Below are positions 308 to 16,097 of a stretch of DNA of 16,097 bases, one piece after another (positions within the stretch are counted from its first letter, which is position 1; every line of letters begins with the position of its first letter). A model generated the notes under the pieces. That model ran no database searches, was not told the origin of the DNA, and was given only the letters and a program-made list of their open reading frames with translations. The stretch is from NCBI GenBank assembly GCA_029907305.1, contig JARYMC010000023.1, positions 1 to 16,097 on the forward strand, in the 5' to 3' direction. The translations under genes and the position numbers were made by a program. Source of the stretch: Thermoplasmatota archaeon (GTDB taxonomy: Archaea; Thermoplasmatota; E2; DHVEG-1).

Positions 308-2137
308 ATGAAAAGAATTATAACTGGAATAATTGTTTTAACTCTGTTTATTAGTGTTTTTAACTTTTTTTTATCTGAGAATATTTGCATCGCTGGAAAA
401 ACCATATATGTTGATAAAAACGGAGGGGGCAATTATACCACAATTCAGGAGGCGATAGACGCGGCTGACCCTGGTGATAAGATATTTGTTTACAGCGGAA
501 CCTACAATGAACATCTCAAAATCACAAAAAACATAGAACTCGTTGGAGAAAGCAAAGTTTCTGTTATCATAGATGGTAGCGGTGGGGCAAACGAACATGT
601 AGTGTATGCATATGGATCTGATGGAAATGAAATTGAATTTAGGATTTCTGGTTTTACGATAAAAAATGCTCATGGAACCGGATTTGATTGTTTAGCTTTA
701 TCATATGTTAACACTGGTGAAATAAATGATAATAAAATAATGAATAGTGCAAAAAGCGATGGTGTTCAGCTTGACCACTGCAGCGGTGTTACAATAAGTG
801 GAAATACTATAAGCGGTAATACTCAGGGTAGCGGCATAAACCTAGTTGTTTCAACAAACAATGTTATTTCCAATAATCAAATTCAGAATAACCAGATAGG
901 AATCAATCTATATCAATCCCAAAATAATATGATATATAACAACAAATTAAACGGGAATACCCAAAGAGGGATCTCCATCTCTCAATCATCAAATAATGTT
1001 TTTTACAAAAATGATTTCTCGAATAACGGACAAAATGCTTACGATCCTGGTACAAACAACAGCTGGAATTATAATAAGTGGGGTAACTACTGGGATGATT
1101 ACACAGGTAAAGATGACAATGGTGATGGCATCGGTGACACACCATATAATATATCTGGTGGTAGCAATAAAGATATGTGTCCTCTCGGGTATTTTGTTGG
1201 TGAAAATCAAAAACCGGTTGCTTTTATTGATTCTATCAGCCCCACCCCAGCAACAGAGGGACAAACAGTTTCTTTTAATGGGCATGGAACAGATAGTGAT
1301 GGTACAATCATAGAATTTGAGTGGACATCGAGTATAGATGGGCAGATAAGCAATTTGGAAGATTTCACGTATTCAGGTTTATCTGTTGGTACACATACAA
1401 TTAGTTTTCGTGTTAAGGACAACAACGGTGAATGGTCAACACCTGTAACAAAAACACTCACAGTAAATGCTGCCAGCCAGCAAAACCATAAACCAACTGC
1501 TATAATCGTAGCAGTAAAACCAAGTAGTGCAAACTATGGGACAACTATAACGTTTTCAGGTAGAGGAACAGATATAGATGATGATGAAATTATAGAGTAT
1601 AGTTGGAGTTCCAATATAGATGGTTTTTTGAGCGAACAAGCAATATTTACCAAATCTGATCTATCACCTGGAGACCACATAATATCATTTAAAGTAAAAG
1701 ACTCAAAAGGGGCATGGTCTGATGTGGTTACAACAGGTCTCACAATAAAACAGATATCACACCAAAATAACCCACCTATAGCAGATGCCGGTGGACCTTA
1801 TTCAGGGGTTGTGAATGTTTCTTTGTCTTTTAATGGATCAAATAGTCACGACCCTGATGATGGGGATAATATAGTATCCTATTTATGGGATTTCGGTGAT
1901 TACACAAATAGTACAACAGTAAACCCAACTCACGTTTACTCCCGAGCGGGAAACTACACTGTAACCCTAACTGTGACTGATAGCCATGGAAGTAAAAATA
2001 CGAGCTCAACTTATGCAAGCATTACACAATCAAACAACCAGAATAAAGACAACGCCGGTAAGACACCGGGTTTTGAATTTTTATTTATAGTTATAGCTAT
2101 AGGTTTTATTTTATTGTGGAAAAAAACTTTTGGGTAA
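308..2137 (+). CDS. Secreted right-handed beta-helix (NosD/PbH1-type) surface protein with three PKD/Ig-like domains and a PGF-CTERM anchor signal
   Basis: 609-aa ORF with GGTGA Shine-Dalgarno at 298-302 and N-terminal signal peptide MKRIITGIIVLTLFISVFNFF. Typical beta-helix start IYVDKNGGGNYTTIQEAIDAADPGDKIFVYSGTY, then repeated SGNTI/SNNQI/NNKL turns and GNYWDDYTGKDDNGDGIGDTPY. Three PKD-like domains follow; the third has WDFGD. C-terminus is GKTPGFEFLFIVIAIGFILLWKK. Confidence 0.93.
   Translation: MKRIITGIIVLTLFISVFNFFLSENICIAGKTIYVDKNGGGNYTTIQEAIDAADPGDKIFVYSGTYNEHLKITKNIELVGESKVSVIIDGSGGANEHVVYAYGSDGNEIEFRISGFTIKNAHGTGFDCLALSYVNTGEINDNKIMNSAKSDGVQLDHCSGVTISGNTISGNTQGSGINLVVSTNNVISNNQIQNNQIGINLYQSQNNMIYNNKLNGNTQRGISISQSSNNVFYKNDFSNNGQNAYDPGTNNSWNYNKWGNYWDDYTGKDDNGDGIGDTPYNISGGSNKDMCPLGYFVGENQKPVAFIDSISPTPATEGQTVSFNGHGTDSDGTIIEFEWTSSIDGQISNLEDFTYSGLSVGTHTISFRVKDNNGEWSTPVTKTLTVNAASQQNHKPTAIIVAVKPSSANYGTTITFSGRGTDIDDDEIIEYSWSSNIDGFLSEQAIFTKSDLSPGDHIISFKVKDSKGAWSDVVTTGLTIKQISHQNNPPIADAGGPYSGVVNVSLSFNGSNSHDPDDGDNIVSYLWDFGDYTNSTTVNPTHVYSRAGNYTVTLTVTDSHGSKNTSSTYASITQSNNQNKDNAGKTPGFEFLFIVIAIGFILLWKKTFG
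1211..2026 (+). repeat. Three tandem PKD/Ig-like domain repeats (protein level, about 85 aa each)
   Basis: Units at aa 302-387, 395-481 and 489-573 share the pattern xVxFxGxGxDxDGxIxxYxWxSxxDGxL...GxHxIxxxVxDxxGxWS. The third is a canonical PKD domain (SYLWDFGD...HVYSRAGNYTVTLTVTD). The DNA copies are diverged. Confidence 0.8.
2063..2134 (+). other. PGF-CTERM archaeosortase-A-type sorting signal (C-terminal 24 aa)
   Basis: A Pro-Gly-Phe motif (TPGFEF) is followed by a hydrophobic helix (LFIVIAIGFILLW) and a basic tail (KK), preceded by a polar N/Q/S-rich linker. This is the PGF-CTERM tripartite layout. Confidence 0.8.
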
Positions 2138-2200: not shown

Positions 2201-4354
2201 TCATCTGTAGAGTTTGATATTGCGTTCAAGTAGTGAAAACAAATGCCATAGGACTGGGAAACGCTGGAGGATTTTGTTTAATATCGGATGCATAAATGTT
2301 CTAGGTGTTGTTAACTCCACTGGTATATCTACATAGTCACTTGGGTTTTCTGTGTTAACGATTTTTACTACACCTGAGAATATTTTCTCTGATAGTGTAG
2401 GTGCAACAACTGTTACATGGACATCAACTAACGACCCTGGTTTAAGACCTGTGCCGCTTGATGGGCTAAAACTCCATGTTCCCCACTCTGGCCACCCAGC
2501 TATCTTCCAGCTTAGCTTGTTTTGACCATATGGATCTGGATTACCGATGTTTTCAACATAAATGTCTGATGTCACTGTTGACCCTGGTGATATCCCCCTC
2601 CAGGTAAGGTCACCATATGCGTTAAGATTTGGTTGTGAGGGCTCATAATCATCTGATATTTTAAACCAGACTTTGGCATCGTTTTCATCTGTAGTAGTGC
2701 TACCATCGTCTTCACCGTTGGTGGTAAGATACCCACCTTCCTGCCTAACTGTATCACCAGTGAGTTTGTTAGTCGCAATGTTATAAGTCCCCTGGTATAT
2801 AGCTCCTCTAACATCATCTATTGAGTTGTCTACTCCACCACCAGGGTATGCGCTCACATCAGCTAAATCATCAGCTCCACCCTCTATTATACCATCGTGT
2901 TCCATGAGCTTGATTTTTATCTGAACCTCAAGGTTTTTTGCATCAAAAACATAGTCTTTATCTGGCGTCCATGTGTCTTCGTTGTTCCAGTCGAAAATCC
3001 ACCAACCAGGTAGTATCTCCACATCTTGACCATTATATTCAAAGATAGCATTATCGTCAACGCTAACCCGATAGTACCACTCTGCCTGTCCACCAGTAAC
3101 CCAGTCGATTGGATCTATTTTCTCCACCTTATATATCTTTACTGTTACCTTTGACCAGTTACTAGGTCCTCCTCCGCCACCAAGTGAGGCATCAACAAGA
3201 CCATAACCAAAGTATTGATCCCAACCTGTTTGACCTAGATCCTCGGCTGTGTCCCTAAGTTTTTGTCTAATCCAAACATTGTTCTGAGATGGATACAATG
3301 ACTTAGCAAGCGCAGCAACACCAGCTACATGAGGACACGCCATAGAGGTACCAGTGAAGAACTTATACTCGTTACCAGGTATCGATGATACAACACGGTA
3401 ACCTGGTGCCATAAGCTCCAAGTCTTCACCATAGTTACTAAAACTACATCTATTATCACTTGTATCAATAGCACCAACAGCTATAACAGTAGGATAAGCA
3501 GCAGGGTAACTAACATGGGATTGACCATCGTTACCCGCAGCAGCAACCACTACAACACCCTTCGTGTTATATGCATAATCACAGGCATCCTGGATAACAG
3601 AAGACGGGCTGTTACTACCAAGACTCATACTGATAATATCAGCACCGTTGTCAGCAGCATGTGTTATACCACTAGCCACATTAGATGAACTACCTGAGCC
3701 ACCTGCACTGAGAACCTTCTCAGCCATAACCTTAACCTGGGCTACACCAGCGATACCCTTGTTGTTGTTCATAACCGCAGCAGCTATACCAGCACAATGC
3801 GTCCCATGGTCATTATCATCCATCGGATCATTATCGTTGTTAACCCAGTCGTAACCCCCAGAAACATAGTTACCAGAGATATCCTCATGATTATAATCGA
3901 TACCGGTGTCCACAATAGCTATTTTTACATTGCTGCTACCAGTCCCAGCATCCCATGCTTTTTCACAATGAATCCTCTTAGGACCCCACTGCTGACCCCA
4001 AAGAGGATCATTAGGTGTGAGAAAAGCATGAACTAGATAATTAAGCTCAGCGTATTTAACATAAGGAGAACCAATAACACTATTGATGAATGATTGTTCC
4101 TCCCCTTCGTTAACACTGATTACAGCAGCGTTTAAAACAACAATTTTCTGTTTGATGTTATGCCCATTAAAACTGTTGATGTACTCAACATTTATTGGCT
4201 CTAAACCATCTAGTTGTTTGTGGAAACCTACAACAACCTCACCAGGCACATAATCAACTGTAGCATTGTTGTCCCCATTTTGTGTAGCAACAGCCCCAAA
4301 ACCACTAGCAACCATCAACAAAATGATGGTTGATACCACAATTTTCTCTCTCAT
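2201..4354 (-). CDS. Secreted subtilisin-like serine peptidase (family S8) with I9-type propeptide and a 283-aa C-terminal module plus tail
   Basis: Catalytic triad motifs are IAIVDTGID (Asp codon 3908-3910), DHGTHCAG (His 3806-3808) and GTSMACPHVAG (Ser 3344-3346). An I9-like propeptide (YVPGEVVVGF...YVKYAELNYLVHA) and signal peptide MREKIVVSTIILLMVASGFGAVA are present. The ORF track starts at 4372, but ATG 4352-4354 has GGAGGT (4364-4369) 9 nt upstream, so I call the start at 4354. Confidence 0.93.
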   Translation of the reverse strand: MREKIVVSTIILLMVASGFGAVATQNGDNNATVDYVPGEVVVGFHKQLDGLEPINVEYINSFNGHNIKQKIVVLNAAVISVNEGEEQSFINSVIGSPYVKYAELNYLVHAFLTPNDPLWGQQWGPKRIHCEKAWDAGTGSSNVKIAIVDTGIDYNHEDISGNYVSGGYDWVNNDNDPMDDNDHGTHCAGIAAAVMNNNKGIAGVAQVKVMAEKVLSAGGSGSSSNVASGITHAADNGADIISMSLGSNSPSSVIQDACDYAYNTKGVVVVAAAGNDGQSHVSYPAAYPTVIAVGAIDTSDNRCSFSNYGEDLELMAPGYRVVSSIPGNEYKFFTGTSMACPHVAGVAALAKSLYPSQNNVWIRQKLRDTAEDLGQTGWDQYFGYGLVDASLGGGGGPSNWSKVTVKIYKVEKIDPIDWVTGGQAEWYYRVSVDDNAIFEYNGQDVEILPGWWIFDWNNEDTWTPDKDYVFDAKNLEVQIKIKLMEHDGIIEGGADDLADVSAYPGGGVDNSIDDVRGAIYQGTYNIATNKLTGDTVRQEGGYLTTNGEDDGSTTTDENDAKVWFKISDDYEPSQPNLNAYGDLTWRGISPGSTVTSDIYVENIGNPDPYGQNKLSWKIAGWPEWGTWSFSPSSGTGLKPGSLVDVHVTVVAPTLSEKIFSGVVKIVNTENPSDYVDIPVELTTPRTFMHPILNKILQRFPVLWHLFSLLERNIKLYR

Positions 4355-4385
4355 TTTTTTTAGACCTCCCATTTTTTCAAATTAC

Positions 4386-6203
4386 TCATAATTTAATTAC
4401 CTCTTTATTTAATATCCTGCTGGTATCAAAAAATAAACTAGAGAAAAGAAACCGTGAAACCTGTGGTCTCTGTAAATAATTGACAAAAAACATTTGATTT
4501 GATATATCCCGCGGTACAGTTATTGACACAGTGATATCCTGGTTCCCCCCATTTGAAGTAAGTTTAAGAACCCCACTGTAATCATCTTGTTGCATATCAC
4601 CAGTGTTTACTGTAACCACAACTTCTTTCTTCTGACCAGCAGATAATGAGCCTGACGACGGGTTTACTGCATCAACCCAGGAAGGCTTGGTTATACTCCA
4701 ATCAAGTTTTCTATTTGGGTTAAATGGATCGGGTTCTGCTGTGTTTTCGATGATTAACGTTGCTGTTACAGTCTCTCCTTGCCCAACTGAACCGAAACTA
4801 ATCGAAGTCGGATAAACTTTTAATTTTGGCTTATAATCATCATTATTATAGGTGTCTGTGATTTTAAACAGAATTTTTGCATCATTTTGATCACCTGATT
4901 CACCATCTAGTTCCCCTGTGATAACATAGTAACCACTCTCTGTTGTGAAATCATCTCCGCTAAGAGTATCAGTCTCTAGGTTATATGCCCCATGATAAAC
5001 TGCCCCTCGTCTTTCTCCGTTTAACCATTCATCAAACAAGAAATTATCAGCTCCACCACCTGGATGACTACTGATATCAGCTAGGTCATCGAGGAATAAA
5101 TCGTCCTCCATCAACTTAATTTGAATGTCAACAACTGGGTCGATGACTTTAACGACGTAATTTTTATTTGGAGTCCAAGTAACTTGGTTTTCTGGACCGA
5201 TTTCAGTTGTAACAAAAGCTACATCTTTTGAAAACATTCTGATTGTATAATACCAGTCTGGGTCATCACCTGGCCATCCCTCTATGGAATCTTGTTCAAT
5301 AACTTGGTATATGTTTACTGTCACTGTTATATCACTGCTAACACCGCCACCAATGATCGTAACCTCACTATTAGGATCTCCATCATACATCTGTGGGTGC
5401 TGAGAGGACATATAATTTGTGGTTTTTGGTTGCGCGTAATTAAATGTTTCCTCAGCGGTAATAACACCATCGTTGTTGCCCTGTTGGTCAGCATTCCCCC
5501 GGAAACCTTCTATAACAAAGTAGCTGAAGACACCACTTTTTAGTTCATCGGTTTCATATGAATATTCATTCGCTGCACAAGCCATCAGAATAACACGGTT
5601 TTCATTCCCAGCACCTAAAGTCTGTAAAAAGTTGGTGATAAAATCATCTGCGTTGAAATTAAAACCTGGTGGACCCATACCACCACTGTAACAGGTGTCT
5701 AGTATAACTACGACCCTGCCGTTGAAATTGTTTAGTATACCATTAAGCTCGGTATCATACATGTATGAGTCGTAGCAGCAGATTGCTTCACCATTACCAT
5801 CTTTTGTTCCGTGGCCGCTAAAGAAAAACAGTGATACGCTACTTGAAGTTGTTTGTCCTGCTATTTCATTTAATTTATTTGTTATAGCACCTTCTGTGCC
5901 TTGGCTGTCAATAAAAATAGTTATGTCGTTTTCATTCCACCCATTTTGTTTAAGAACTTCTCTCATCCCACGGGCATCGTCATCAGTGTATTGTAGATCT
6001 GGCCCACCTGGCCCAGCAGGGGGGTAATCAGCTACTCCAACAACTAGTGCTTTTCTTCCTCCAGCTAGAGATTCTACATTTAAAATATTATCACTGTTTT
6101 TATTCACAACATGTTGTGTGCTAACTTGACCAGCTGCCCCAAAACTTCCTAAAACCATTAGGATAACGATGGTTAAAGACAATATTTCCCCATTCATCTC
6201 CAT
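4386..6203 (-). CDS. Secreted clan-CD cysteine peptidase, caspase-like (C14 orthocaspase/metacaspase-type) with a 274-aa C-terminal module plus tail
   Basis: KALVVGVADY..., FFFSGHGT (His codon 5811-5813) and VVVILDTCYSGG (Cys 5691-5693) form the His/Cys dyad in caspase-fold order. GVFSYFVIEGFRGNAD..NDGVITAEE is typical of prokaryotic C14 proteins. Signal peptide is present. The track start at 6209 is a GTG. ATG 6201-6203 has GGAG 5 nt upstream, so the start is 6203 or 6209. The gap to the S8 gene is only 13-31 nt, so the two are probably co-transcribed. Confidence 0.88.
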   Translation of the reverse strand: MEMNGEILSLTIVILMVLGSFGAAGQVSTQHVVNKNSDNILNVESLAGGRKALVVGVADYPPAGPGGPDLQYTDDDARGMREVLKQNGWNENDITIFIDSQGTEGAITNKLNEIAGQTTSSSVSLFFFSGHGTKDGNGEAICCYDSYMYDTELNGILNNFNGRVVVILDTCYSGGMGPPGFNFNADDFITNFLQTLGAGNENRVILMACAANEYSYETDELKSGVFSYFVIEGFRGNADQQGNNDGVITAEETFNYAQPKTTNYMSSQHPQMYDGDPNSEVTIIGGGVSSDITVTVNIYQVIEQDSIEGWPGDDPDWYYTIRMFSKDVAFVTTEIGPENQVTWTPNKNYVVKVIDPVVDIQIKLMEDDLFLDDLADISSHPGGGADNFLFDEWLNGERRGAVYHGAYNLETDTLSGDDFTTESGYYVITGELDGESGDQNDAKILFKITDTYNNDDYKPKLKVYPTSISFGSVGQGETVTATLIIENTAEPDPFNPNRKLDWSITKPSWVDAVNPSSGSLSAGQKKEVVVTVNTGDMQQDDYSGVLKLTSNGGNQDITVSITVPRDISNQMFFVNYLQRPQVSRFLFSSLFFDTSRILNKEVIKL

Positions 6204-6250
6204 AGACACTCCACTCGCTTTAAATAACAGCCGATATATATATGAAATTG

Positions 6251-6266
6251 TATATAAATAATTTTT
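6251..6266 (-). promoter_or_regulatory. Candidate promoter (TTTATATA TATA box + A-rich BRE) for the C14-S8 gene pair
   Basis: The minus strand reads AAAAATTA-TTTATATA (TATA at 6251-6258), matching the archaeal TTTAWATA consensus. The predicted TSS near 6225 leaves a short leader containing the GGAG SD. Confidence 0.4.
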
Positions 6267-6269
6267 GTT

Positions 6270-6282
6270 AAAAACAAAAAAA
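6270..6282 (-). terminator. Oligo-T tracts (T7, G, T5) just after the C25 peptidase stop
   Basis: The minus strand reads TAA-A-TTTTTTT-G-TTTTT immediately downstream of the stop at 6284-6286. Confidence 0.45.
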
Positions 6283-6283
6283 T

Positions 6284-7699
6284 TTAATTAGTGCATCCAC
6301 CGATTTTAAGACTGGGATCACCAAGAAGAGTCCACTGCTGAACAGTTTTACAGTCACTGCGGTCATTATGCACATCAAATTCATTGATATAGTCTCTTAT
6401 AACCTGGGTGTGCAACTCACCAAGAATATCTACGCCATTGACTGAATACTCATAAAATAACTTGGGTTCTATCCAACCAGCAAGACCATTCAAAGTATAG
6501 TTACCAAAATAACAAAAACCTAACCCGGTGTTACCTATAGCTGCTATAGCACCACCGTTACGACAACTAACCAGTCGCCAACCAAGACACTCAGGTATCC
6601 ATTCAAACTTCCAAAAAGAACCAGACTCGTCCTCAGAGGATTTAAAATAAGATAAACCCTCTTTACTAAAATCCCTCAATATGTTAAAAGGGCTGGTATC
6701 GAACATATTATTGTGGCAACCACCAATTATAAAAATTGGTAGTTTCTCACCGTTTCTAATACTACGAACCTGAAAAGTAAAAAGTAAATCCATCCATATA
6801 GTATCATTATCAACAGGATGGGTAGACCAAACCAACGGGGTTCCATGACCTGAGATATGAACAAAACCAGCACCTTTCCTAATCGCTGTGACTAGATCAC
6901 GGCTTTTTTTTAAACTCCCATCAGAAACCCATAGGCGAGTAATATTAAAATTGATAGCCCTCATATAACTAGATGAGAGATCAGTGATAGCCTCACCCTC
7001 ATAAACACCATCCTGATCAAGGGGAACAGTATCACCACCAGCGATTATCATATTTTTAAACCAGCTCCCACTGGAAGCCCTGGTCTCATAGTTGATTATT
7101 TTCTTAACAACGGTTCTAACCTCAAACAGGTTTCTACAGGCAAGACGCCCAACACATACATCAGGATAAAGATCGAGGACGTCTTTCACCGATGAGTCCC
7201 AGTTCCACTCAGCAAAAACATTGTTACCATTAGAGTCCCAGTCATCAAAAACCAGTTTACCATCCCCATCCATCTTGTAGATATCAGCGTAGTAAAGATC
7301 ACTTATGTATCTTATATCCCAATCCTGACGATCATCTAAATTAGAATATCTCACTGGTACATACCAGCTTTGCCTACCGGTTTTCATACCACCAACAAGA
7401 AGAACATATTTTATACCCCATGTTTCCAAAGCATCTTTTATGAAGTATTTTATCTGCTCAGGTTTATCCCTACCAACATAACCTCTATAGATTTCGTCTG
7501 TTGTTTTTAAAATGGTTTTGACACCAACATTGTTTTTATGTTTAACAAGAGGAGAAAGCAGTTTTGAAAACTCTTTTGGCGCTATGATAACAAGATCATA
7601 TGAATCAGATGATTTCGAAGATTGTTTAACCGCATTAGTATTTATATTAGAAAGCATCAAAAGGATTAAAACTAATGATATTAGTACTAGGTATCTCAT
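6284..7699 (-). CDS. Secreted clan-CD cysteine peptidase, gingipain-like (family C25)
   Basis: C25-type N-terminal region is YDLVIIAPKEFSKLLSPLVKHKNNVGVKT...GRDKPEQIKYFIKDA...YVLLVGG, followed by VCVGRLACRN...IINYE. His motif is FVHISGHGTP (His codon 6845-6847) and Cys motif is IFIIGGCHNNMF (Cys 6716-6718). It ends LLGDPSLKI. Signal peptide is MRYLVLISLVLILLMLS. GGGAGGT lies at 7713-7719. Confidence 0.88.
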   Translation of the reverse strand: MRYLVLISLVLILLMLSNINTNAVKQSSKSSDSYDLVIIAPKEFSKLLSPLVKHKNNVGVKTILKTTDEIYRGYVGRDKPEQIKYFIKDALETWGIKYVLLVGGMKTGRQSWYVPVRYSNLDDRQDWDIRYISDLYYADIYKMDGDGKLVFDDWDSNGNNVFAEWNWDSSVKDVLDLYPDVCVGRLACRNLFEVRTVVKKIINYETRASSGSWFKNMIIAGGDTVPLDQDGVYEGEAITDLSSSYMRAINFNITRLWVSDGSLKKSRDLVTAIRKGAGFVHISGHGTPLVWSTHPVDNDTIWMDLLFTFQVRSIRNGEKLPIFIIGGCHNNMFDTSPFNILRDFSKEGLSYFKSSEDESGSFWKFEWIPECLGWRLVSCRNGGAIAAIGNTGLGFCYFGNYTLNGLAGWIEPKLFYEYSVNGVDILGELHTQVIRDYINEFDVHNDRSDCKTVQQWTLLGDPSLKIGGCTN

Positions 7700-7754
7700 A
7701 AACTAGTTTTTTACCTCCCTGAGATTAAAAGATGTTTTATAATAAAAACTGTGT

Positions 7755-7764
7755 TATTTAAATA
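7755..7764 (-). promoter_or_regulatory. Candidate TATA box for the C25 peptidase gene
   Basis: The minus strand reads TATTTAAATA. The predicted TSS near 7734 gives a leader of about 35 nt that includes the SD at 7713-7719. Confidence 0.35.
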
Positions 7765-7811
7765 TTCGCATGTATCTATAACCATGTTGTTTGTCTGATA
7801 AAATCTAGATT

Positions 7812-7833
7812 AAAAAAATGGGATAAAAAGAAA
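7812..7833 (-). terminator. Oligo-T tracts downstream of the 941-aa gene
   Basis: The minus strand reads TTTCTTTTTATCCCATTTTTTT, starting about 20 nt after the stop at 7853-7855. Confidence 0.4.
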
Positions 7834-7852
7834 TAGATTTTATTAAAAGGGA

Positions 7853-10678
7853 TTAATTGTTCATGGTGTTTTGATTACCAGCTATCTTTATTGTTACTGA
7901 TGTACCCTGCATCTGTAAGTTGTTGTTAACCTGGTTAACTGATATGGTTTGTACATAATTTACAATAATGTTTCTTGGGAAATACACATAGATGTTTGCT
8001 TCGTATTCATGGCCAGCGTAATCATGCGCAACAGCAATTATATGTCTCCATTGACTCTTCTCAAATGAACGATCACACCACCATTTATAGTTATTAGAAC
8101 CAGGTGGATCCGGGTTGTATACTCTAACCGGGCTCTCATAAGGTGGGCCAACATCAAATTCCACATAAGCAACTCCTGAGCCAACATCTGTTGCTGTTGC
8201 TTGTACCCAAAATCCTCCCTGTCCAGGTACATTTGCTCGATCTGGTGGATCCCAAATTTCACAGTACGGTGGGGCTTTATCGAGCTTTATGTGCTGTGGT
8301 CCCTGAGGTGGCTCAACGTTTCCTGCTTTGTCAACAGACCAATAGTAAACATCCCATTCTCCATACATAGTGTTTGGGTCACCTGTTGCATCTAAAGGTA
8401 TTTTTATGCCGTTGTCTTTGTTATATTCTTGAACTACTCCATCATCTATCCTGAAATACGTGTGATTAACACCTGAGCCATGCTGACCATCTGTTGCACT
8501 AAGCTCTATCTTTACATTTCCAATATACCAACCATTTAAACCCAATGGTCCTTCTATTTTACTTATCACTGTTTCAGGTGGATCTTCATCTAAACCAACA
8601 TAAACAACCTTCCATGAATCAAGCGTTGGCGTATAAGACGGGTTTGTACGAGTGAAATAAGCCTGTAAACGAATACCAGGATGCAAAACTGGGTCAATAC
8701 CTGATAGATCCTCGCCGTCACCAGCGTTAGAAATCAAAACTGTTACTCCATTGCTATCAAGTATGTTAAAAACTATACTACCAGCGTATTGTACACCAAA
8801 TTCATACCATGCAAGTAGATTCTCAGGGCTTATCACCTTAGAAGTAACCTGAGCTGTTAAAATCAGCTGTTTCTCAGTACCAATAGAGTATGTTACTTCT
8901 GATCCAGAGGGAATATTTAAATGCCAAATATTACCATAAACAGAGGGTAGAATTTGGTTAACAATCCTCTCGTCCTCCCATGTAACAAAAATCTTTCCTT
9001 CACCAACAGCCATATTCGCCCAGTCAGCATCAGCAGAGTTACTTGCAGAAAGCTGAACATCACCAGACACAACCTGACCATTAGAGAGAACAAGTTTACC
9101 AAAAATATCACCATTATTGTCAAATGAGACAAAAAATGATGATGACAAATAATTAACAATGTCAGTTCTCACAAAATTACCAGCTTTAATAATAAAATTA
9201 TTTACAATTGTGTTCCCAGAATAATCCAGTATCCTACCCCATACGTTACCCCACCAGTCGCCATCACTTATATCACCATCATTCCAAGTAACCAGGTAAC
9301 ATTGTGCTTCTGCAGAAAATTCCACACATGGGAAATTATAATCAGTATCAGAACTTCCAGTAGCAATAGTAATTGTACTACCAACTGGGTTTAAATTTTT
9401 ATCAAAAAGACCAGCTTTAATGCTAAAAGGTCCATTATCAGCTGTCAATCCTTCCTCCCATACAATCATGTATTGCTCATGTACAGGATCAAAAGCAACC
9501 CATGGTTCACACTGAGAATTTGCAGCAGTACAAATAGTTTTCTCAGAACCAACAGGATTACCACTGGTATCATAGAGTCTACCATAAATATTGTAATTAT
9601 TCATACCATTACGAGCATCCTCCCAAACAACACAAAAACGATTATTAACAGAATCAAACTCAACATTAGGGTCAGCCTGACAATTACTAGCAGTACAAAT
9701 ATCAATCACAGGACCAAGACCACCACTAGTTGTAACAGTCCTACCCTTAATATCCATATAAGTAGGATCAACAGGATGAGAAACACCATAATGCTCCCAA
9801 GCAACAAAAAACTTACCACCACCAAAATCAATAGACGGGTTCTCATTTCTAAATTGCAGAGGATAAGGTAAACCATCTGAAAATACTTCAAATTCAGATA
9901 CAACAACATTACCGCTACTATCAAACATAGTGCCCCTGATCTCTTGTCGAATAGGAACTACGGTTCCTTCTTCCCAAGCAACAAAAAACCTGCTGCTACC
10001 AAAAGCAACATCCGGATCCCAAGCACCCTCGACATTTAGTTTATTTGTTATCTTATAATCATCCCCCCACCTGTATTCCCAGGAAAAAACATTATCAAAA
10101 TTGCTTTCACTTGTAGCACTGGGGTTACCATAAAACAGGTACATATTACTAGTTCCAGTTTGTAAATAAGGTATTTCAACCCAAACAACAGCCTTGGTTG
10201 AATCATATGTTTCTATCCAGTAATCAAGCCAACTTGATGGTAAACTTTCATGTTTAAAACGAAGATCATCATAATCAGGCTGCATATCAGAATCATAACT
10301 AACATTAATTTTAACAACACAGTTGGTTATTGGACTCCCTGCGTTGTTTGTTATCTGAATTGGTTTCATCCTAGTCCAAGACGGATCAGTCCAGATAGGG
10401 TAAGTGTTTTTCATTTTAACATAACCATTTTCAATAACATAATTATCTGTTGCTCCAGCCCCAGGAGGATTTGGATCGATTTTTGAGGAATCATTAAAAA
10501 AATCTTTCCAATAGGAAACTCCTCTCCCATCTTTGTCTAATAACTCTATTGTTTTATTTTGGAACAAATTTTTTATGTCCTTTATTGGTTTATGATCAAA
10601 AGCCTGCGCTGCTGAAGAAGCAAGTAAAATAATAAATAATGCTACAGCAGCTATTTTCAAAACATTGTTTTTTTCCAT
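7853..10678 (-). CDS. Large secreted protein: DUF2341 (concanavalin-like) domain + seven-fold 'VAWED' repeat region (beta-propeller-like) + beta-sandwich + two Ig-like domains
   Basis: 941-aa ORF with signal peptide MEKNNVLKIAAVALFIILLASSAAQA and GGGGGT SD 5 nt upstream. DUF2341-like block is YDDLRFKHE..LDYWIETYDSTKAVVWVEIPYLQTGTSNMYLFYGNPSA (aa 104-198). Seven repeats span aa 218-587. The C-terminal Ig-like units contain GWYIGNVKIELSATDGQHGSGVNHTYFRIDDG and WVQATATDVGSGVAYVEFDVG. Confidence 0.9.
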   Translation of the reverse strand: MEKNNVLKIAAVALFIILLASSAAQAFDHKPIKDIKNLFQNKTIELLDKDGRGVSYWKDFFNDSSKIDPNPPGAGATDNYVIENGYVKMKNTYPIWTDPSWTRMKPIQITNNAGSPITNCVVKINVSYDSDMQPDYDDLRFKHESLPSSWLDYWIETYDSTKAVVWVEIPYLQTGTSNMYLFYGNPSATSESNFDNVFSWEYRWGDDYKITNKLNVEGAWDPDVAFGSSRFFVAWEEGTVVPIRQEIRGTMFDSSGNVVVSEFEVFSDGLPYPLQFRNENPSIDFGGGKFFVAWEHYGVSHPVDPTYMDIKGRTVTTSGGLGPVIDICTASNCQADPNVEFDSVNNRFCVVWEDARNGMNNYNIYGRLYDTSGNPVGSEKTICTAANSQCEPWVAFDPVHEQYMIVWEEGLTADNGPFSIKAGLFDKNLNPVGSTITIATGSSDTDYNFPCVEFSAEAQCYLVTWNDGDISDGDWWGNVWGRILDYSGNTIVNNFIIKAGNFVRTDIVNYLSSSFFVSFDNNGDIFGKLVLSNGQVVSGDVQLSASNSADADWANMAVGEGKIFVTWEDERIVNQILPSVYGNIWHLNIPSGSEVTYSIGTEKQLILTAQVTSKVISPENLLAWYEFGVQYAGSIVFNILDSNGVTVLISNAGDGEDLSGIDPVLHPGIRLQAYFTRTNPSYTPTLDSWKVVYVGLDEDPPETVISKIEGPLGLNGWYIGNVKIELSATDGQHGSGVNHTYFRIDDGVVQEYNKDNGIKIPLDATGDPNTMYGEWDVYYWSVDKAGNVEPPQGPQHIKLDKAPPYCEIWDPPDRANVPGQGGFWVQATATDVGSGVAYVEFDVGPPYESPVRVYNPDPPGSNNYKWWCDRSFEKSQWRHIIAVAHDYAGHEYEANIYVYFPRNIIVNYVQTISVNQVNNNLQMQGTSVTIKIAGNQNTMNN
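8918..10027 (-). repeat. Seven tandem repeats of about 50-60 aa (protein level) with core P-x-V-x-F-(x)n-F-x-V-x-W-E-[DE]-...-I-x-G-x-x-x-D-x-x-G-N
   Basis: Successive cores are DVAFGSSRFFVAWEEG, SIDFGGGKFFVAWEHY, NVEFDSVNNRFCVVWEDA, WVAFDPVHEQYMIVWEEG, CVEFSAEAQCYLVTWNDG, DIVNYLSSSFFVSFDNNG and NMAVGEGKIFVTWEDE. Each is followed by a [IV]xG..xDxSGN strand. Seven units suggest a 7-bladed propeller, which is inference. Confidence 0.7.
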
Positions 10679-10969: not shown

Positions 10970-11563
10970 TCACCCATTGGTTAACATCATACTCATAGAC
11001 TGTTGCATCAAAATCTGTTCCTCAACTGACAAAGTATCCATGTATTGTTGTAATAACAACTGCTCATCAGCTGCCAAGGTAAGCATATACTCGTTCATAG
11101 ACTCACTGCTACCACCACCACCGCCTTTGCGAATCATAGTAATATCCTGATTATGTTTAACTGGCTGCGACGAAGTCAATCTCACAAATCTAAATCCAGG
11201 CAGATATTCATCAGGTTTACGAGCTATCACCAAGAAAAGCCCTATTGGAACATCAGTAAAAAAGTAATAACCATTTGCATTAGTTTTATCCGCTTTCTGG
11301 AAAGCAAAAGTTATCCCACCAATAATCTTTCCACCAATTAAAGTAACACTAGCACCTTCAACTGTTACAGCCCCGGTACCATTAAGTGGAAGACCATAAA
11401 CAGTACCATCAATAGAGATAGTACTAAGAGAAACCATAATCTTTTTTATAGCAGTTTGTTGCAAAGATGTTTTTGGTTGAACAACTAAAGCCATTAAACC
11501 AGGGCTAGCTAAGATTATACAAACTAAAACCAAGATAAATGTTGATACCGCTCTTTTTTTCAT
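10970..11563 (-). CDS. Small secreted protein with a carboxypeptidase-regulatory-like (CarboxypepD_reg) beta-sandwich and a Gln/Met-rich repeat tail
   Basis: Signal peptide is MKKRAVSTFILVLVCIILASPGLMA. IDGTVYG...VTVEGASVTL...KTNANGYYFFTDVPIGLFLVIARKPDEYLP fits the CarboxypepD_reg pattern. The track start at 11581 is a GTG lying inside the SD. ATG 11561-11563 has GGAGGTGA (11569-11576) 5 nt upstream, so I call the start at 11563. Confidence 0.8.
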   Translation of the reverse strand: MKKRAVSTFILVLVCIILASPGLMALVVQPKTSLQQTAIKKIMVSLSTISIDGTVYGLPLNGTGAVTVEGASVTLIGGKIIGGITFAFQKADKTNANGYYFFTDVPIGLFLVIARKPDEYLPGFRFVRLTSSQPVKHNQDITMIRKGGGGGSSESMNEYMLTLAADEQLLLQQYMDTLSVEEQILMQQSMSMMLTNG

Positions 11564-11708
11564 CTTCTTCACCTCCCCCACCTGTCCATAATAAAATTTT
11601 TTTGTTGCTACCGGCGGACGTAAACAACCTTTTTTTGTTATATCACCTCTTCCTCCTTAAACTTTATAAGTTTTTTTAGGAGTTTATAGTATAATATAGA
11701 ACACCTTC

Positions 11709-12066: not shown

Positions 12067-12300
12067 GGTGGCTTGACAGCGTACCAGGAGCCCCTAACTT
12101 TCAAGCAGTGGAGCTTACCTCATAAGACTCCCGAAGGAATCAAACAAGGCTCTCCACCTAGGCTAAGGGTTCCAGCCCCTTGCGGGGTAATCTTCCCATG
12201 GGCTCGCGCACCATAGTACCGAAGATTACGCAGGTGAGCTTAACTGCCGGGTTCTGGATGAGACCGGGTGTTTCCCCACCGCTTTGACCGTCAAACCACC
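12067..12300 (-). rRNA. rrf: 5S rRNA, apparently expanded (about 234 nt) by an internal insertion of about 105 nt
   Basis: The minus strand contains the 5S core GCGGUGGGGAAACACCCGGUCUCAUCCAGAACCCGGCAGUUAAGCUCACCUGCGUAAUCUUCGGUACUAUGGUGCGCGAGCCCAUGGGAAGAUUAC (about 12187-12283). The helix I 5' strand GGUGGUUUGACGG (12288-12300) finds its complement only at 12067-12079 (CUGUCAAGCCACC), not directly after helix V. End points are approximate; pairing extends to 12063/12305. Confidence 0.8.
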
Positions 12301-12334
12301 ATTACCCTAGAGTTTATGTGAAAAATTTTTTTTG

Positions 12335-12345
12335 TACGCAACCTG
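12335..12345 (-). other. 3' half of the 23S pre-rRNA processing helix
   Basis: TACGCAACCTG (plus strand) is the exact reverse complement of 15289-15299. Such flanking helices carry the bulge-helix-bulge sites cut by the archaeal splicing endonuclease. Confidence 0.6.
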
Positions 12346-15288
<2,943 letters not shown>

Positions 15289-15299
15289 CAGGTTGCGTA
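15289..15299 (-). other. 5' half of the 23S pre-rRNA processing helix
   Basis: CAGGTTGCGTA pairs perfectly (11 bp) with 12335-12345. Confidence 0.6.
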
Positions 15300-15445
15300 T
15301 GCAATCCATTGCACATTTTGCAATGGGACAATCATCGACTGAAATATATTTGCGAAGATACCAGTCTATGTCCTTACCATCTTATTCTCTGCAGAATAAG
15401 ATGGCGTTCTTTATATGAGCTAGTTATTTGAATGGAAAATCGCGA

Positions 15446-15517
15446 TGGACCGGATGGGATTTGAACCCATGGCCTCCTGCTTGCAAAGCAGGCGATCTTC
15501 CGCTGATCTACCGGCCC
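15446..15517 (-). tRNA. tRNA-Ala (anticodon UGC) in the 16S-23S spacer
   Basis: The reverse complement is GGGCCGGTAGATCAGCGGAAGATCGCCTGCTTTGCAAGCAGGAGGCCATGGGTTCAAATCCCATCCGGTCCA. The acceptor has the G3:U70 alanine identity pair. The anticodon loop is TTTGCAA and the T loop is TTCAAAT. Length is 72 nt with no encoded CCA. Confidence 0.95.
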
Positions 15518-15629
15518 AACCCTTTAACAAATAATTTTGTGTCAGTGGGTGAGCCAGTAGCGGTTAATATATTTTTTGTCGACGTATGTTTTTAGTGTTT
15601 TTGAACTACCCAACCATTTTTTTTATCGT

Positions 15630-16097
<468 letters not shown>

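Follow-up and report, generated by a model that had tools for sequence, protein, structure and literature searches.

In Thermoplasmatota archaea, exported proteins of several kinds end in a short tail with an almost invariant (E/Q)RFP core, and the S8 subtilase encoded in the stretch of DNA considered here is one of its carriers. The stretch, called the window below, is 16,097 nt of contig JARYMC010000023.1, and coordinates without a locus prefix refer to it. It contains a peptidase island in which four exported proteins, a 941-aa protein, a C25 gingipain-like peptidase, a C14 caspase-like peptidase and the S8 subtilase, are encoded head-to-tail on the minus strand (Table 1). Judged by sequence comparison, the S8 tail clearly belongs to the (E/Q)RFP family, although it has diverged, and the C14 tail appears to be a degenerate member. 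The family, referred to as the tag, is apparently undescribed. We give about even odds (roughly 0.5) to the reading that the S8 tail, and the C14 tail in degenerate form, serves as a transmembrane (TM)-less surface-retention or sorting tag on exported enzymes, a surface role that we infer from the properties of the family as a whole. Exported carriers, strict C-terminal position, portability, several copies per genome, interchange with PGF-CTERM and an amphipathic, cationic, predicted hairpin all fit a retention or sorting tag that acts after Sec export.

The tail family and its carriers

The family was delineated with a profile of the immunoglobulin-like (Ig) domain plus tail, which was run in an exhaustive HMMER search against 1.84 billion cluster representatives at 50% identity and gave 3549 representatives at E ≤ 1e-3 and 145 at E ≤ 1e-30. 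The tail is the end of 121 among the best 150 of the 3549. The whole S8 module as first query had found three relatives only, the window module being diverged, and a tail-only alignment in a word-indexed protein search returned six candidates, none of which scored. The tie of the S8 tail to the family comes from a hidden Markov model (HMM) of TP and tail (53 positions) from unrelated proteins, which it matches with 27.5 bits (E = 6e-7) at one residue from the C-terminus.

The last strand before the tail reads V-S-L-x-T-P (V in 96, L in 99, T in 112 and P in 112 of 120 sequences), and its conserved proline closes the last β-strand of the final folded domain. The linker that follows is polar and often basic, P-[K/R/V]-[N/S]-[K/Q/R] plus 5–12 residues. 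At position +1 after the proline, the 121 cluster representatives have K (39), R (24), V (22), L (9) or others; position +2 is N (52) or S (21), and position +3 is K, Q or R. The tail has a median length of 32 aa and a core of hLxxhh(E/Q)RFP(NAFP)hLRxLLGh, canonically FLERFPNAFPILRxLLGL, and the motif logo has a [RKHQN][FYH]P core in 79 of 120 tails. Its two predicted helices meet at the almost invariant (E/Q)-R-F-P kink and end at or near the free C-terminus. Examples are LFQRILERFPNAFPILRYLLGL and, from the window S8 protein, ILNKILQRFPVLWHLFSLL; an additional tail sequence is FLERFPNAFPILRHLLGL. The pattern '...FLNxLQ...FP.L..LL', which the original prediction supposed to occur in other archaeal metagenome proteins, is essentially this consensus. 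Two cysteines are invariant in the canonical Ig domains that precede the tag, one close to the start (DLxC.G) and one close to the end (D.C.I), and may form a disulfide; the Ig copies of the window S8 and C14 proteins (2300-2647 and 4509-4847) are without both.

No model in Pfam-A or NCBIfam matches the tails at E ≤ 10, either in the window proteins or in canonical members. The family proteins are all named 'hypothetical protein' at their source, and a literature search by motif and topic found nothing on the tag.

For the genomic distribution, one genome per GTDB species was scanned with two narrow canonical patterns. The scan was seeded with five canonical sequences, a 33-sequence alignment being too diverse, so that the loci are biased to canonical tails. 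It gave 156 confirmed matches, of which 79 loci were retained and their flanks inspected over ±10 kb. All are from metagenome-assembled genomes (MAGs) of Thermoplasmatota, the only phylum in which the tag has been found so far. They include SG8-52-3 and SM1-50, which we take to be MAGs of Marine Benthic Group D, abbreviated MBG-D. Three complete chromosomes among the scanned genomes have 4–5 loci each, and up to four tagged genes stand in tandem. In the six-frame open reading frames (ORFs) of the 79 loci (1.06 Mb), the tail-only HMM matches 80 ORFs at E ≤ 1e-3; reversed sequences gave no match, and shuffling the last 45 residues left one. Restriction of the motif to protein C-termini, proposed as a check, is borne out: 79 of 83 tail matches end within 5 residues of the stop codon, on varied exported carriers. 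Among the four exceptions is L024:11160-11846, in which a strong match (E = 7e-8) is followed by another 150 residues of the ORF (...TPKNNSVMFSLLFHLFERFPNAFPYLKYFLIING...); a lost stop codon or fusion with the next gene may be the reason.

The tag stands behind different last domains, namely a PapD/HYDIN/VesB-like Ig domain (by Foldseek), a PKD domain with the junction ...W(G/S)xLxVxMP(K/R)NK..., or the C25 catalytic domain directly (L016 and L017). The peptidases among the cargo are C1 papain-family enzymes (18 genes, most of them tagged), C10 streptopain-like enzymes, C25, S8 and C14; other cargo comprises NosD β-helix proteins, PQQ and FG-GAP propellers, a β-lactamase-fold protein and an arylsulfotransferase-family protein. 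By a hydropathy heuristic, 62 of 74 tagged proteins (84%) have a hydrophobic N-terminus, compared with 236 of 558 other genes.

Ends of the PGF type coexist with the tag in the same genomes and loci. The PGF-anchored β-helix protein of the window is 40% identical over 325 aa to P0080, which ends in an Ig domain followed by FERFPNMFPILRHMLGL. Homologous β-helix passengers thus carry either PGF-CTERM or the tag, and such a choice of two C-terminal ends is typical of sorting or anchoring signals. The tail had been held to be distinct from PGF-CTERM, and its different motif and the lack of a TM segment agree with that; likewise, its several copies per genome, its occurrence behind different last domains and its exchange with PGF-CTERM are as expected of a sorting- or anchoring-like tag.

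The physical properties of the tails are those of amphipathic segments and not of TM anchors, as had been proposed. The S8 tail has a hydrophobic moment (μH) of 0.43, a net charge of +4 and a maximum 19-residue Kyte-Doolittle (KD) hydropathy of 1.04, and the same KD maximum is 0.73 for the C14 tail. Across the family, the median 11-residue μH is 0.62 and the net charge is +2, and the 19-residue KD maximum has a median of 0.70 and never exceeds 1.53, below the TM-like range and the 2.06 of the PGF-type end in the window. AlphaFold2, run on a 94-sequence alignment, models the S8 tail as a helix from P696 to R704, a kink at F705 and a second helix from P706 to Y722 (residues 121-129 and 131-147 of the construct), with a predicted local distance difference test (pLDDT) score of 77-86, compared with 93-98 for the Ig domain. 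This predicted helix-kink-helix would make RFP the hinge of a helical hairpin. The best Foldseek match of the Ig domain is a HYDIN PapD-like domain, and the VesB Ig domain is also listed.

Between the S8 protein and its orthologue P0022 the tail is 81% identical, compared with 84% for the catalytic domain, 74% for the Ig domain and 71% for mod1, the segment between the catalytic and Ig domains. The tail is as conserved as the catalytic domain, implying purifying selection.

The tails of the window and the proposed cleavage at arginine

The original prediction placed related tails on three neighbouring exported proteins. Retranslation shows that its coordinates and sequences of the three junctions and tails are exact: TPR followed by TFMHPILNKILQRFPVLWHLFSLLERNIKLYR (2204-2308), VPR followed by DISNQ...EVIKL (4389-4517) and FPR followed by NIIVNY...TMNN (7856-7981). 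The relation itself holds for the S8 and C14 proteins and fails for the 941-aa protein. The S8 and C14 proteins are 39% identical over 329 residues (E = 1e-41), from just past the catalytic domains through the tails, and this common module of about 330 aa consists of mod1 (~175 aa), the Ig-like domain and the tail. Both therefore have the Pro-Arg and the tail because these were inherited with a whole duplicated module, not because they recurred independently. Taken alone, the two tails have no significant similarity (p = 0.16 against shuffles), and the C14 tail has no match to the tail-only HMM at E ≤ 10. The module alignment and the likeness of its end ...NQMFFVNYLQRPQVSRFLFSSLFF to a diverged subgroup (P0109, ...SDMFFVNFLQKFLIFRAFLSNFLL) nevertheless suggest that it is a degenerate, homologous member of the family. 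In L083 and L084, the closest relatives of the window (C25 identity 85% and 76%), the S8 gene directly follows the C25 gene with no C14 gene between them; from this comparison the window C14 gene appears to be a later insertion, and its C-terminal module an old copy (39% identical) of that in S8.

The 941-aa protein was rejected as a third member. Its C-terminal region is not similar to the S8 module (best E = 0.085), its tail has no tail-only HMM match, and of four tail comparisons three do not rise above chance (p up to 0.87), the remaining one, with the C14 tail, giving a nominal, uncorrected p of 0.03. The tail is N/Q-rich with low amphipathicity (μH 0.21 versus ~0.4), and its orthologues in L015 and L083 read ...VYFRKS... 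and not ...VYFPRN..., so that the Pro-Arg is missing there. Three proteins of L050 (4837-6585, 8402-10453 and 10556-11518) have the ...VSLATP junction followed by Q/N-rich, low-complexity tails with no RFP hairpin, and the window 941-aa end (7856-7972) is similarly N/Q-rich; such ends could have arisen by decay of the tag or represent an extension of another kind. The C14 and S8 orthologues in L050 have degenerate, Q/N-rich tails after the conserved TP, which indicates that the tag decays in some lineages.

From these observations it could be argued that the S8 tail is nothing special, a residue of module duplication next to a chance Pro-Arg with no function of its own. The whole module is indeed common to the S8 and C14 proteins, their tails alone are not significantly alike, and the 941-aa protein is at or near chance. 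The family-wide conservation, the strict C-terminal restriction, the clean controls and a tail conserved like the catalytic domain already contradict this for the S8 tail, and we regard it as very improbable.

The tail was originally predicted to be a cleavable signal or propeptide, cut after the junction arginine or lysine by the adjacent C25 peptidase, in the manner of PorU, or by the C14 peptidase, perhaps with transfer to a surface anchor. In favour of this, K or R stands directly after the proline in 52–58% of tails, and position +3 is often basic too. The junction is, however, not a conserved arginine site: the proline is near-invariant (112 of 120), but of the cluster representatives only 63 of 121, and of the genome ORFs only 46 of 79, have K or R as the next residue, and V, L, Y, Q, T or F stands there in the rest (42–48%). 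Some linkers are without any basic residue (TPVSQQIDMHPLF... and TPYQVYF...), including those of C10 peptidases (TPYQ...) and many TPVSQQ or TPVNQQ tails. The C1 papain-family peptidase P0003 (...KTPVEFSS...FLQRFPVLWSLIRMAA) has kept the tail with no arginine at the junction.

Several observations speak for the C25 enzyme. Tail-less C25 is the commonest family near tagged genes (18 of 79 loci), directly adjoining a tagged gene in at least 8; most C25 copies end right after the catalytic domain, as does the window enzyme, which consists of a signal peptide and a catalytic domain without propeptide, Ig domain or tail. Four of five loci retrieved with the window C25 have a tagged gene within 10 kb; on the other side of the argument, the C25 locus L086 has no tagged neighbour. 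A C25 enzyme, PorU, is a known sortase (NCBIfam NF033707), and the window C25 has a GHG histidine that falls on the GHG motif of the gingipain R (RgpB) structures in an alignment, while a GGCH motif lies in the region expected for the catalytic cysteine. A Glu of the window enzyme aligns with an RgpB Asp, presumably the S1-pocket residue Asp163, in a weak alignment (E about 0.003-0.013) that is firm only for the GHG histidine.

Against a dedicated PorU-like processor, the window C25 scores 61.3 bits with the PorU model, for which the cut-off is 420 bits. C25 genes are multi-copy per genome, most with gingipain-type propeptides, and 4 of 18 bear the tail themselves (L049 and L064, and in degenerate form L016 and L017), so that they look like cargo or digestive enzymes. 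Extracellular C1A, C14B, C25 and S8 peptidases have been reported as expressed in Thermoprofundales (PMC6461988), and tagged, propeptide-bearing C25 proteins as cargo or digestive enzymes fit that report. The loci are general peptidase islands that also encode C1, C10, M28 and S8 enzymes, and adjacency in such a setting need not mean an enzyme-substrate pair, since co-regulation is possible. The C14 gene, missing between C25 and S8 in L083 and L084, is not part of a conserved system. Arginine-specific removal of the tail by the adjacent C25 or C14 enzyme is thus unlikely.

Proposed function and relation to known sorting systems

In the surface-retention reading, the enzyme would be exported through Sec by means of its N-terminal signal peptide, and the tag would fold outside the cell as a helical hairpin. 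Placed in the membrane interface or attached to one conserved envelope partner, the hairpin would hold the enzyme at the cell surface, and nutrient-releasing hydrolases would thereby be kept from diffusing away in sediment; the exposed linker might allow later shedding. A single envelope partner would explain why RFP is invariant across dozens of paralogues. The near-invariant RFP hinge speaks for a specific partner or enzyme, the physical chemistry for the membrane interface.

Several points weigh against this reading. An amphipathic helix that does no more than bind lipid would not usually show such strong conservation of specific sequence, and neither a receptor with repeated binding domains nor a partner protein was found in 1 Mb of flanking sequence. 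The degenerate tails of the C14 and S8 proteins in L050 and of the window C14 protein make the tag dispensable for some cargo, and the modelled hairpin may do no more than pack against the Ig domain of the same protein. Since the scan used two narrow patterns, the numbers of copies and the restriction to one phylum are lower bounds only.

The tag shares much with the tripartite signals, that is PGF-CTERM/archaeosortase A, LPXTG/sortase, PEP-CTERM/exosortase, GlyGly-CTERM/rhombosortase and MYXO-CTERM/myxosortase. In both, a short signature stands at the extreme C-terminus of varied Sec-exported proteins, is multi-copy per genome and lineage-restricted, and is interchangeable with another anchor on homologous passengers. 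The signature of the tag (the P-x-[NS]-x junction and the (E/Q)RFP core) differs from the motifs of every named signal, no NCBIfam sorting-domain model matches it, it has no TM helix, and its canonical form ends in ...LLGL without a terminal basic cluster. The Ig domain before the tail has a PapD-like fold with weak choice_anch_D (NF012200), CARDB and HYDIN/VesB-like matches; a variable sorting signal typically comes directly after domains of this kind, and GlyGly-CTERM is preceded by the VesB Ig domain. All of these scores are, however, below the curated cut-offs (29.3 versus 45 bits for C14) and the tail lies outside those models.

Bacteroidota's type IX secretion system (T9SS), with its C-terminal domain (CTD) removed by PorU, resembles the tag carriers in having an Ig-like domain near the C-terminus of secreted hydrolases, the gingipain family included, and C25 genes nearby. 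Here, it is not the β-sandwich itself that is conserved but a helical tail behind the Ig or PKD domain, the window C25 is far below the PorU cut-off, and C25 proteins are often cargo. Archaea are without the outer-membrane T9SS machinery of Bacteroidota. A TM anchor, a PGF-CTERM variant and a T9SS CTD were each rejected as the identity of the tag on account of the missing TM hydropathy, model match and β-sandwich end.

In E. coli, the penicillin-binding proteins PBP5 and PBP6 are Sec-exported, and a short C-terminal helix, amphipathic and positively charged, keeps them on the outer side of the cytoplasmic membrane without a TM segment. The tag is like these anchors in physical properties, but in them little of the specific sequence is conserved, whereas many unrelated cargo proteins have the two-helix layout of the tag with its near-invariant (E/Q)RFP kink. 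In the dockerin-cohesin system of cellulosomes, one conserved C-terminal module is found on many clustered secreted hydrolases, a distribution that the tag matches. The tag thus resembles PBP5-type anchors in its physics and dockerins in its distribution, and belongs to neither.

Dockerin-like docking would be one version of the partner-binding branch: the tag would bind a dedicated scaffold or receptor and gather hydrolases in a cell-bound multi-enzyme complex. The invariant (E/Q)RFP and the canonical ...LRxLLG-h-COOH end, across dozens of paralogues and cargo types, fit co-evolution with one partner, the cargo consists mostly of hydrolases encoded in islands, and two unannotated small families with signal-peptide-like N-termini recur beside tagged genes of differing cargo. 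With ~32 aa, the very hydrophobic tag falls far short of the size of a dockerin, it has no Pfam match, dockerin models included, and the 1 Mb of flanks yielded no cohesin-like scaffold or other candidate receptor. On balance, docking of this kind seems rather unlikely.

The search for partners was made by clustering 852 locus genes. Radical-SAM and nitroreductase clusters were discarded, as they are cytoplasmic or come from one syntenic group. The two small families are listed in Table 1. Family 1 (~250-320 aa, no Pfam match) has signal-peptide-like N-termini (...REEA..IFKEAVVELDKYGLLG...). In several genomes it directly adjoins tagged genes whose cargo differs, and its members may be partners, inhibitors or simply further exoproteins. 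Family 2 (~200 aa, unannotated) has a signal-peptide-like N-terminus, the motif ...ASPLF.VR..RAI..ESKD... and a hydrophobic, Cys-rich C-terminus.

The tail could also act within its own protein, by helping it to fold, keeping it latent or stabilising the last domain, and have no sorting role. C-terminal extensions and pro-sequences are known in S8 enzymes, for instance in some subtilases, many carriers are peptidases, and AlphaFold2 models the tail at moderate confidence together with the Ig domain. The same tail is nevertheless found after unrelated Ig, PKD and C25 catalytic domains and on non-enzymes such as propellers and β-helix proteins, and some orthologues have lost the tail and kept the domain, which makes a purely intramolecular role improbable.

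Finally, the tag may be the substrate signal of a TM-less archaeal sorting pathway, though we consider this improbable. In such a pathway a dedicated enzyme, having recognised the (E/Q)RFP hairpin, would cleave within the P-x-(N/S)-x linker and pass the cargo on to an acceptor, either a lipid or a component of the envelope. By analogy with PorU or the glycosylphosphatidylinositol (GPI) transamidase, it might be a clan-CD transpeptidase of C25, C13 or C14 type; to see a GPI-type omega-site in P-x-(N/S) is pure speculation. Such a pathway, if true, would be an archaeal counterpart of T9SS/PorU or of GPI anchoring.

Of the archaea in sediment, Thermoprofundales (MBG-D) and their relatives in Thermoplasmatota belong to the most abundant, and they are credited with the degradation of buried protein by extracellular C1, C10, C14, C25 and S8 peptidases (PMC6461988, PMC9585477). 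Whether an enzyme is released or held by the cell decides who profits from hydrolysis, and hence enters into models of carbon turnover. Surface retention would suit life on detrital protein in sediment, as an ecological argument, and a tag common to these peptidases would, if the retention reading is true, predict a cell-tethered exoproteome. The tag makes it possible to define that exoproteome bioinformatically, for which a new HMM is needed, there being none in Pfam or NCBIfam, and it points to a retention or sorting partner in a phylum that has no cultured representatives for this clade. The same reading, if correct, would add a TM-less type to the C-terminal sorting signals of prokaryotes.

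Layout of the window and minor elements

The features of the window, which is archaeal, are collected in Table 1. A Pfam scan confirms the S8, C14 and C25 assignments, and close orthologues of the window proteins are found in Thermoplasmatales and Thermoplasmatota MAGs only (P0022 and L084 for the S8 subtilase; L015, L083 and L084 for C25). The N-termini of the S8, C14, C25 and 941-aa proteins have a basic stretch followed by a hydrophobic one, as judged by the hydropathy heuristic and not by a trained predictor. In the S8 protein, the domains follow each other in the order signal peptide, fervidolysin-like N-prodomain, S8 catalytic domain, mod1, PapD-like Ig domain and tail. The NosD/PKD gene is convergent to the peptidase island and provides an example of the alternative C-terminal signal in the same organism.

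Table 1. Features of the window and, in the last two rows, members of two small families beside tagged genes at other loci
Feature	Position	Strand	Basis or remark
tRNA-Asp, at the other end of the window from the rRNA operon	156-230
NosD β-helix/PKD protein, PGF-type hydrophobic anchor at 2063-2134	308..2137	+	Pfam; 19-residue KD hydropathy 2.06
S8 subtilase, 723 aa, exported	2201..4372	-	ORF; Pfam Peptidase_S8 E=1e-64; Fervidolysin_NPro-like
S8 tail, aa 692-723, TFMHPILNKILQRFPVLWHLFSLLERNIKLYR	2204..2299	-	Translation; tail-only HMM 27.5 bits, E=6e-7
S8 Pro690-Arg691 junction; family consensus V-S-L-x-T-P-[KRV]-[NS]-[KQR]	2300..2305	-	Translation and junction logo
S8 PapD/HYDIN/VesB-like Ig domain, aa 576-691, before the tail	2300..2647	-	AlphaFold2 pLDDT 93-98; Foldseek
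S8 mod1, ~175 aa, unannotated, common to the C14 protein	2648..3175	-	S8-C14 alignment
C14 caspase-like peptidase, 607 aa, exported, with mod1, Ig and tail module	4386..6209	-	Pfam Peptidase_C14 E=7e-17
C14 tail, 40 aa, degenerate: SRFL or QRPQ in place of RFP	4389..4508	-	Translation; module alignment
C14 mod1	4854-5348	-	Unannotated, shared with S8
C25 gingipain-like peptidase, 471 aa, minimal, exported	6284..7699	-	Pfam Peptidase_C25 E=9e-53
941-aa DUF2341/OmpL47-barrel protein, exported; N/Q-rich C-terminal extension 7856-7972	7853..10678	-	Pfam/NCBIfam; not a tail-family member
203-aa protein: hydrophobic N-terminal segment, weak CarboxypepD_reg-like match, Gly/Ser linker, Q/L/M-rich C-terminus	10970-11581	-
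rRNA operon: 16S 3' part, tRNA-Ala in spacer, complete 23S and 5S	12177-16097	-
Family 1 members	L005:10558-11316, L067:8445-9230, L077:6774-7655, L080:7244-8140, L060:6949-7875, L074:12752-13702
Family 2 members	L061:7800-8414, L074:10246-10860, L074:1897-2496, L033:2891-3472, L045:3662-4339

The mod1 segment of the S8 and C14 proteins has the motif ...VTVKIYKV..WYY...IKIKLMEHD..DDLADVS..GGG.D...RGA.Y.G.Y...NDAK..FKI.D. It has no Pfam match and its AlphaFold2 model is of low confidence. Further copies are found in a C1 peptidase (L015:3124-5337), in L058:8618-10429 and in L050:3083-4777.

A 415-aa gene at two loci (L087:7874-9121 and L085:556-1803) has tandem tagged genes on one side and a minimal C25 gene on the other. 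Its product ends in ...DHPF(I/V)FLI.HEETGAIIFMGKIMNP, which we take to be a serpin-type C-terminus.

The rRNA operon lies immediately upstream of the peptidase island, and the GC content rises from ~37% to ~50% in the rRNA region. The 203-aa protein has a homologue in Thermoplasmatales SM1-50 (L024:19912-20337, E = 3e-47).

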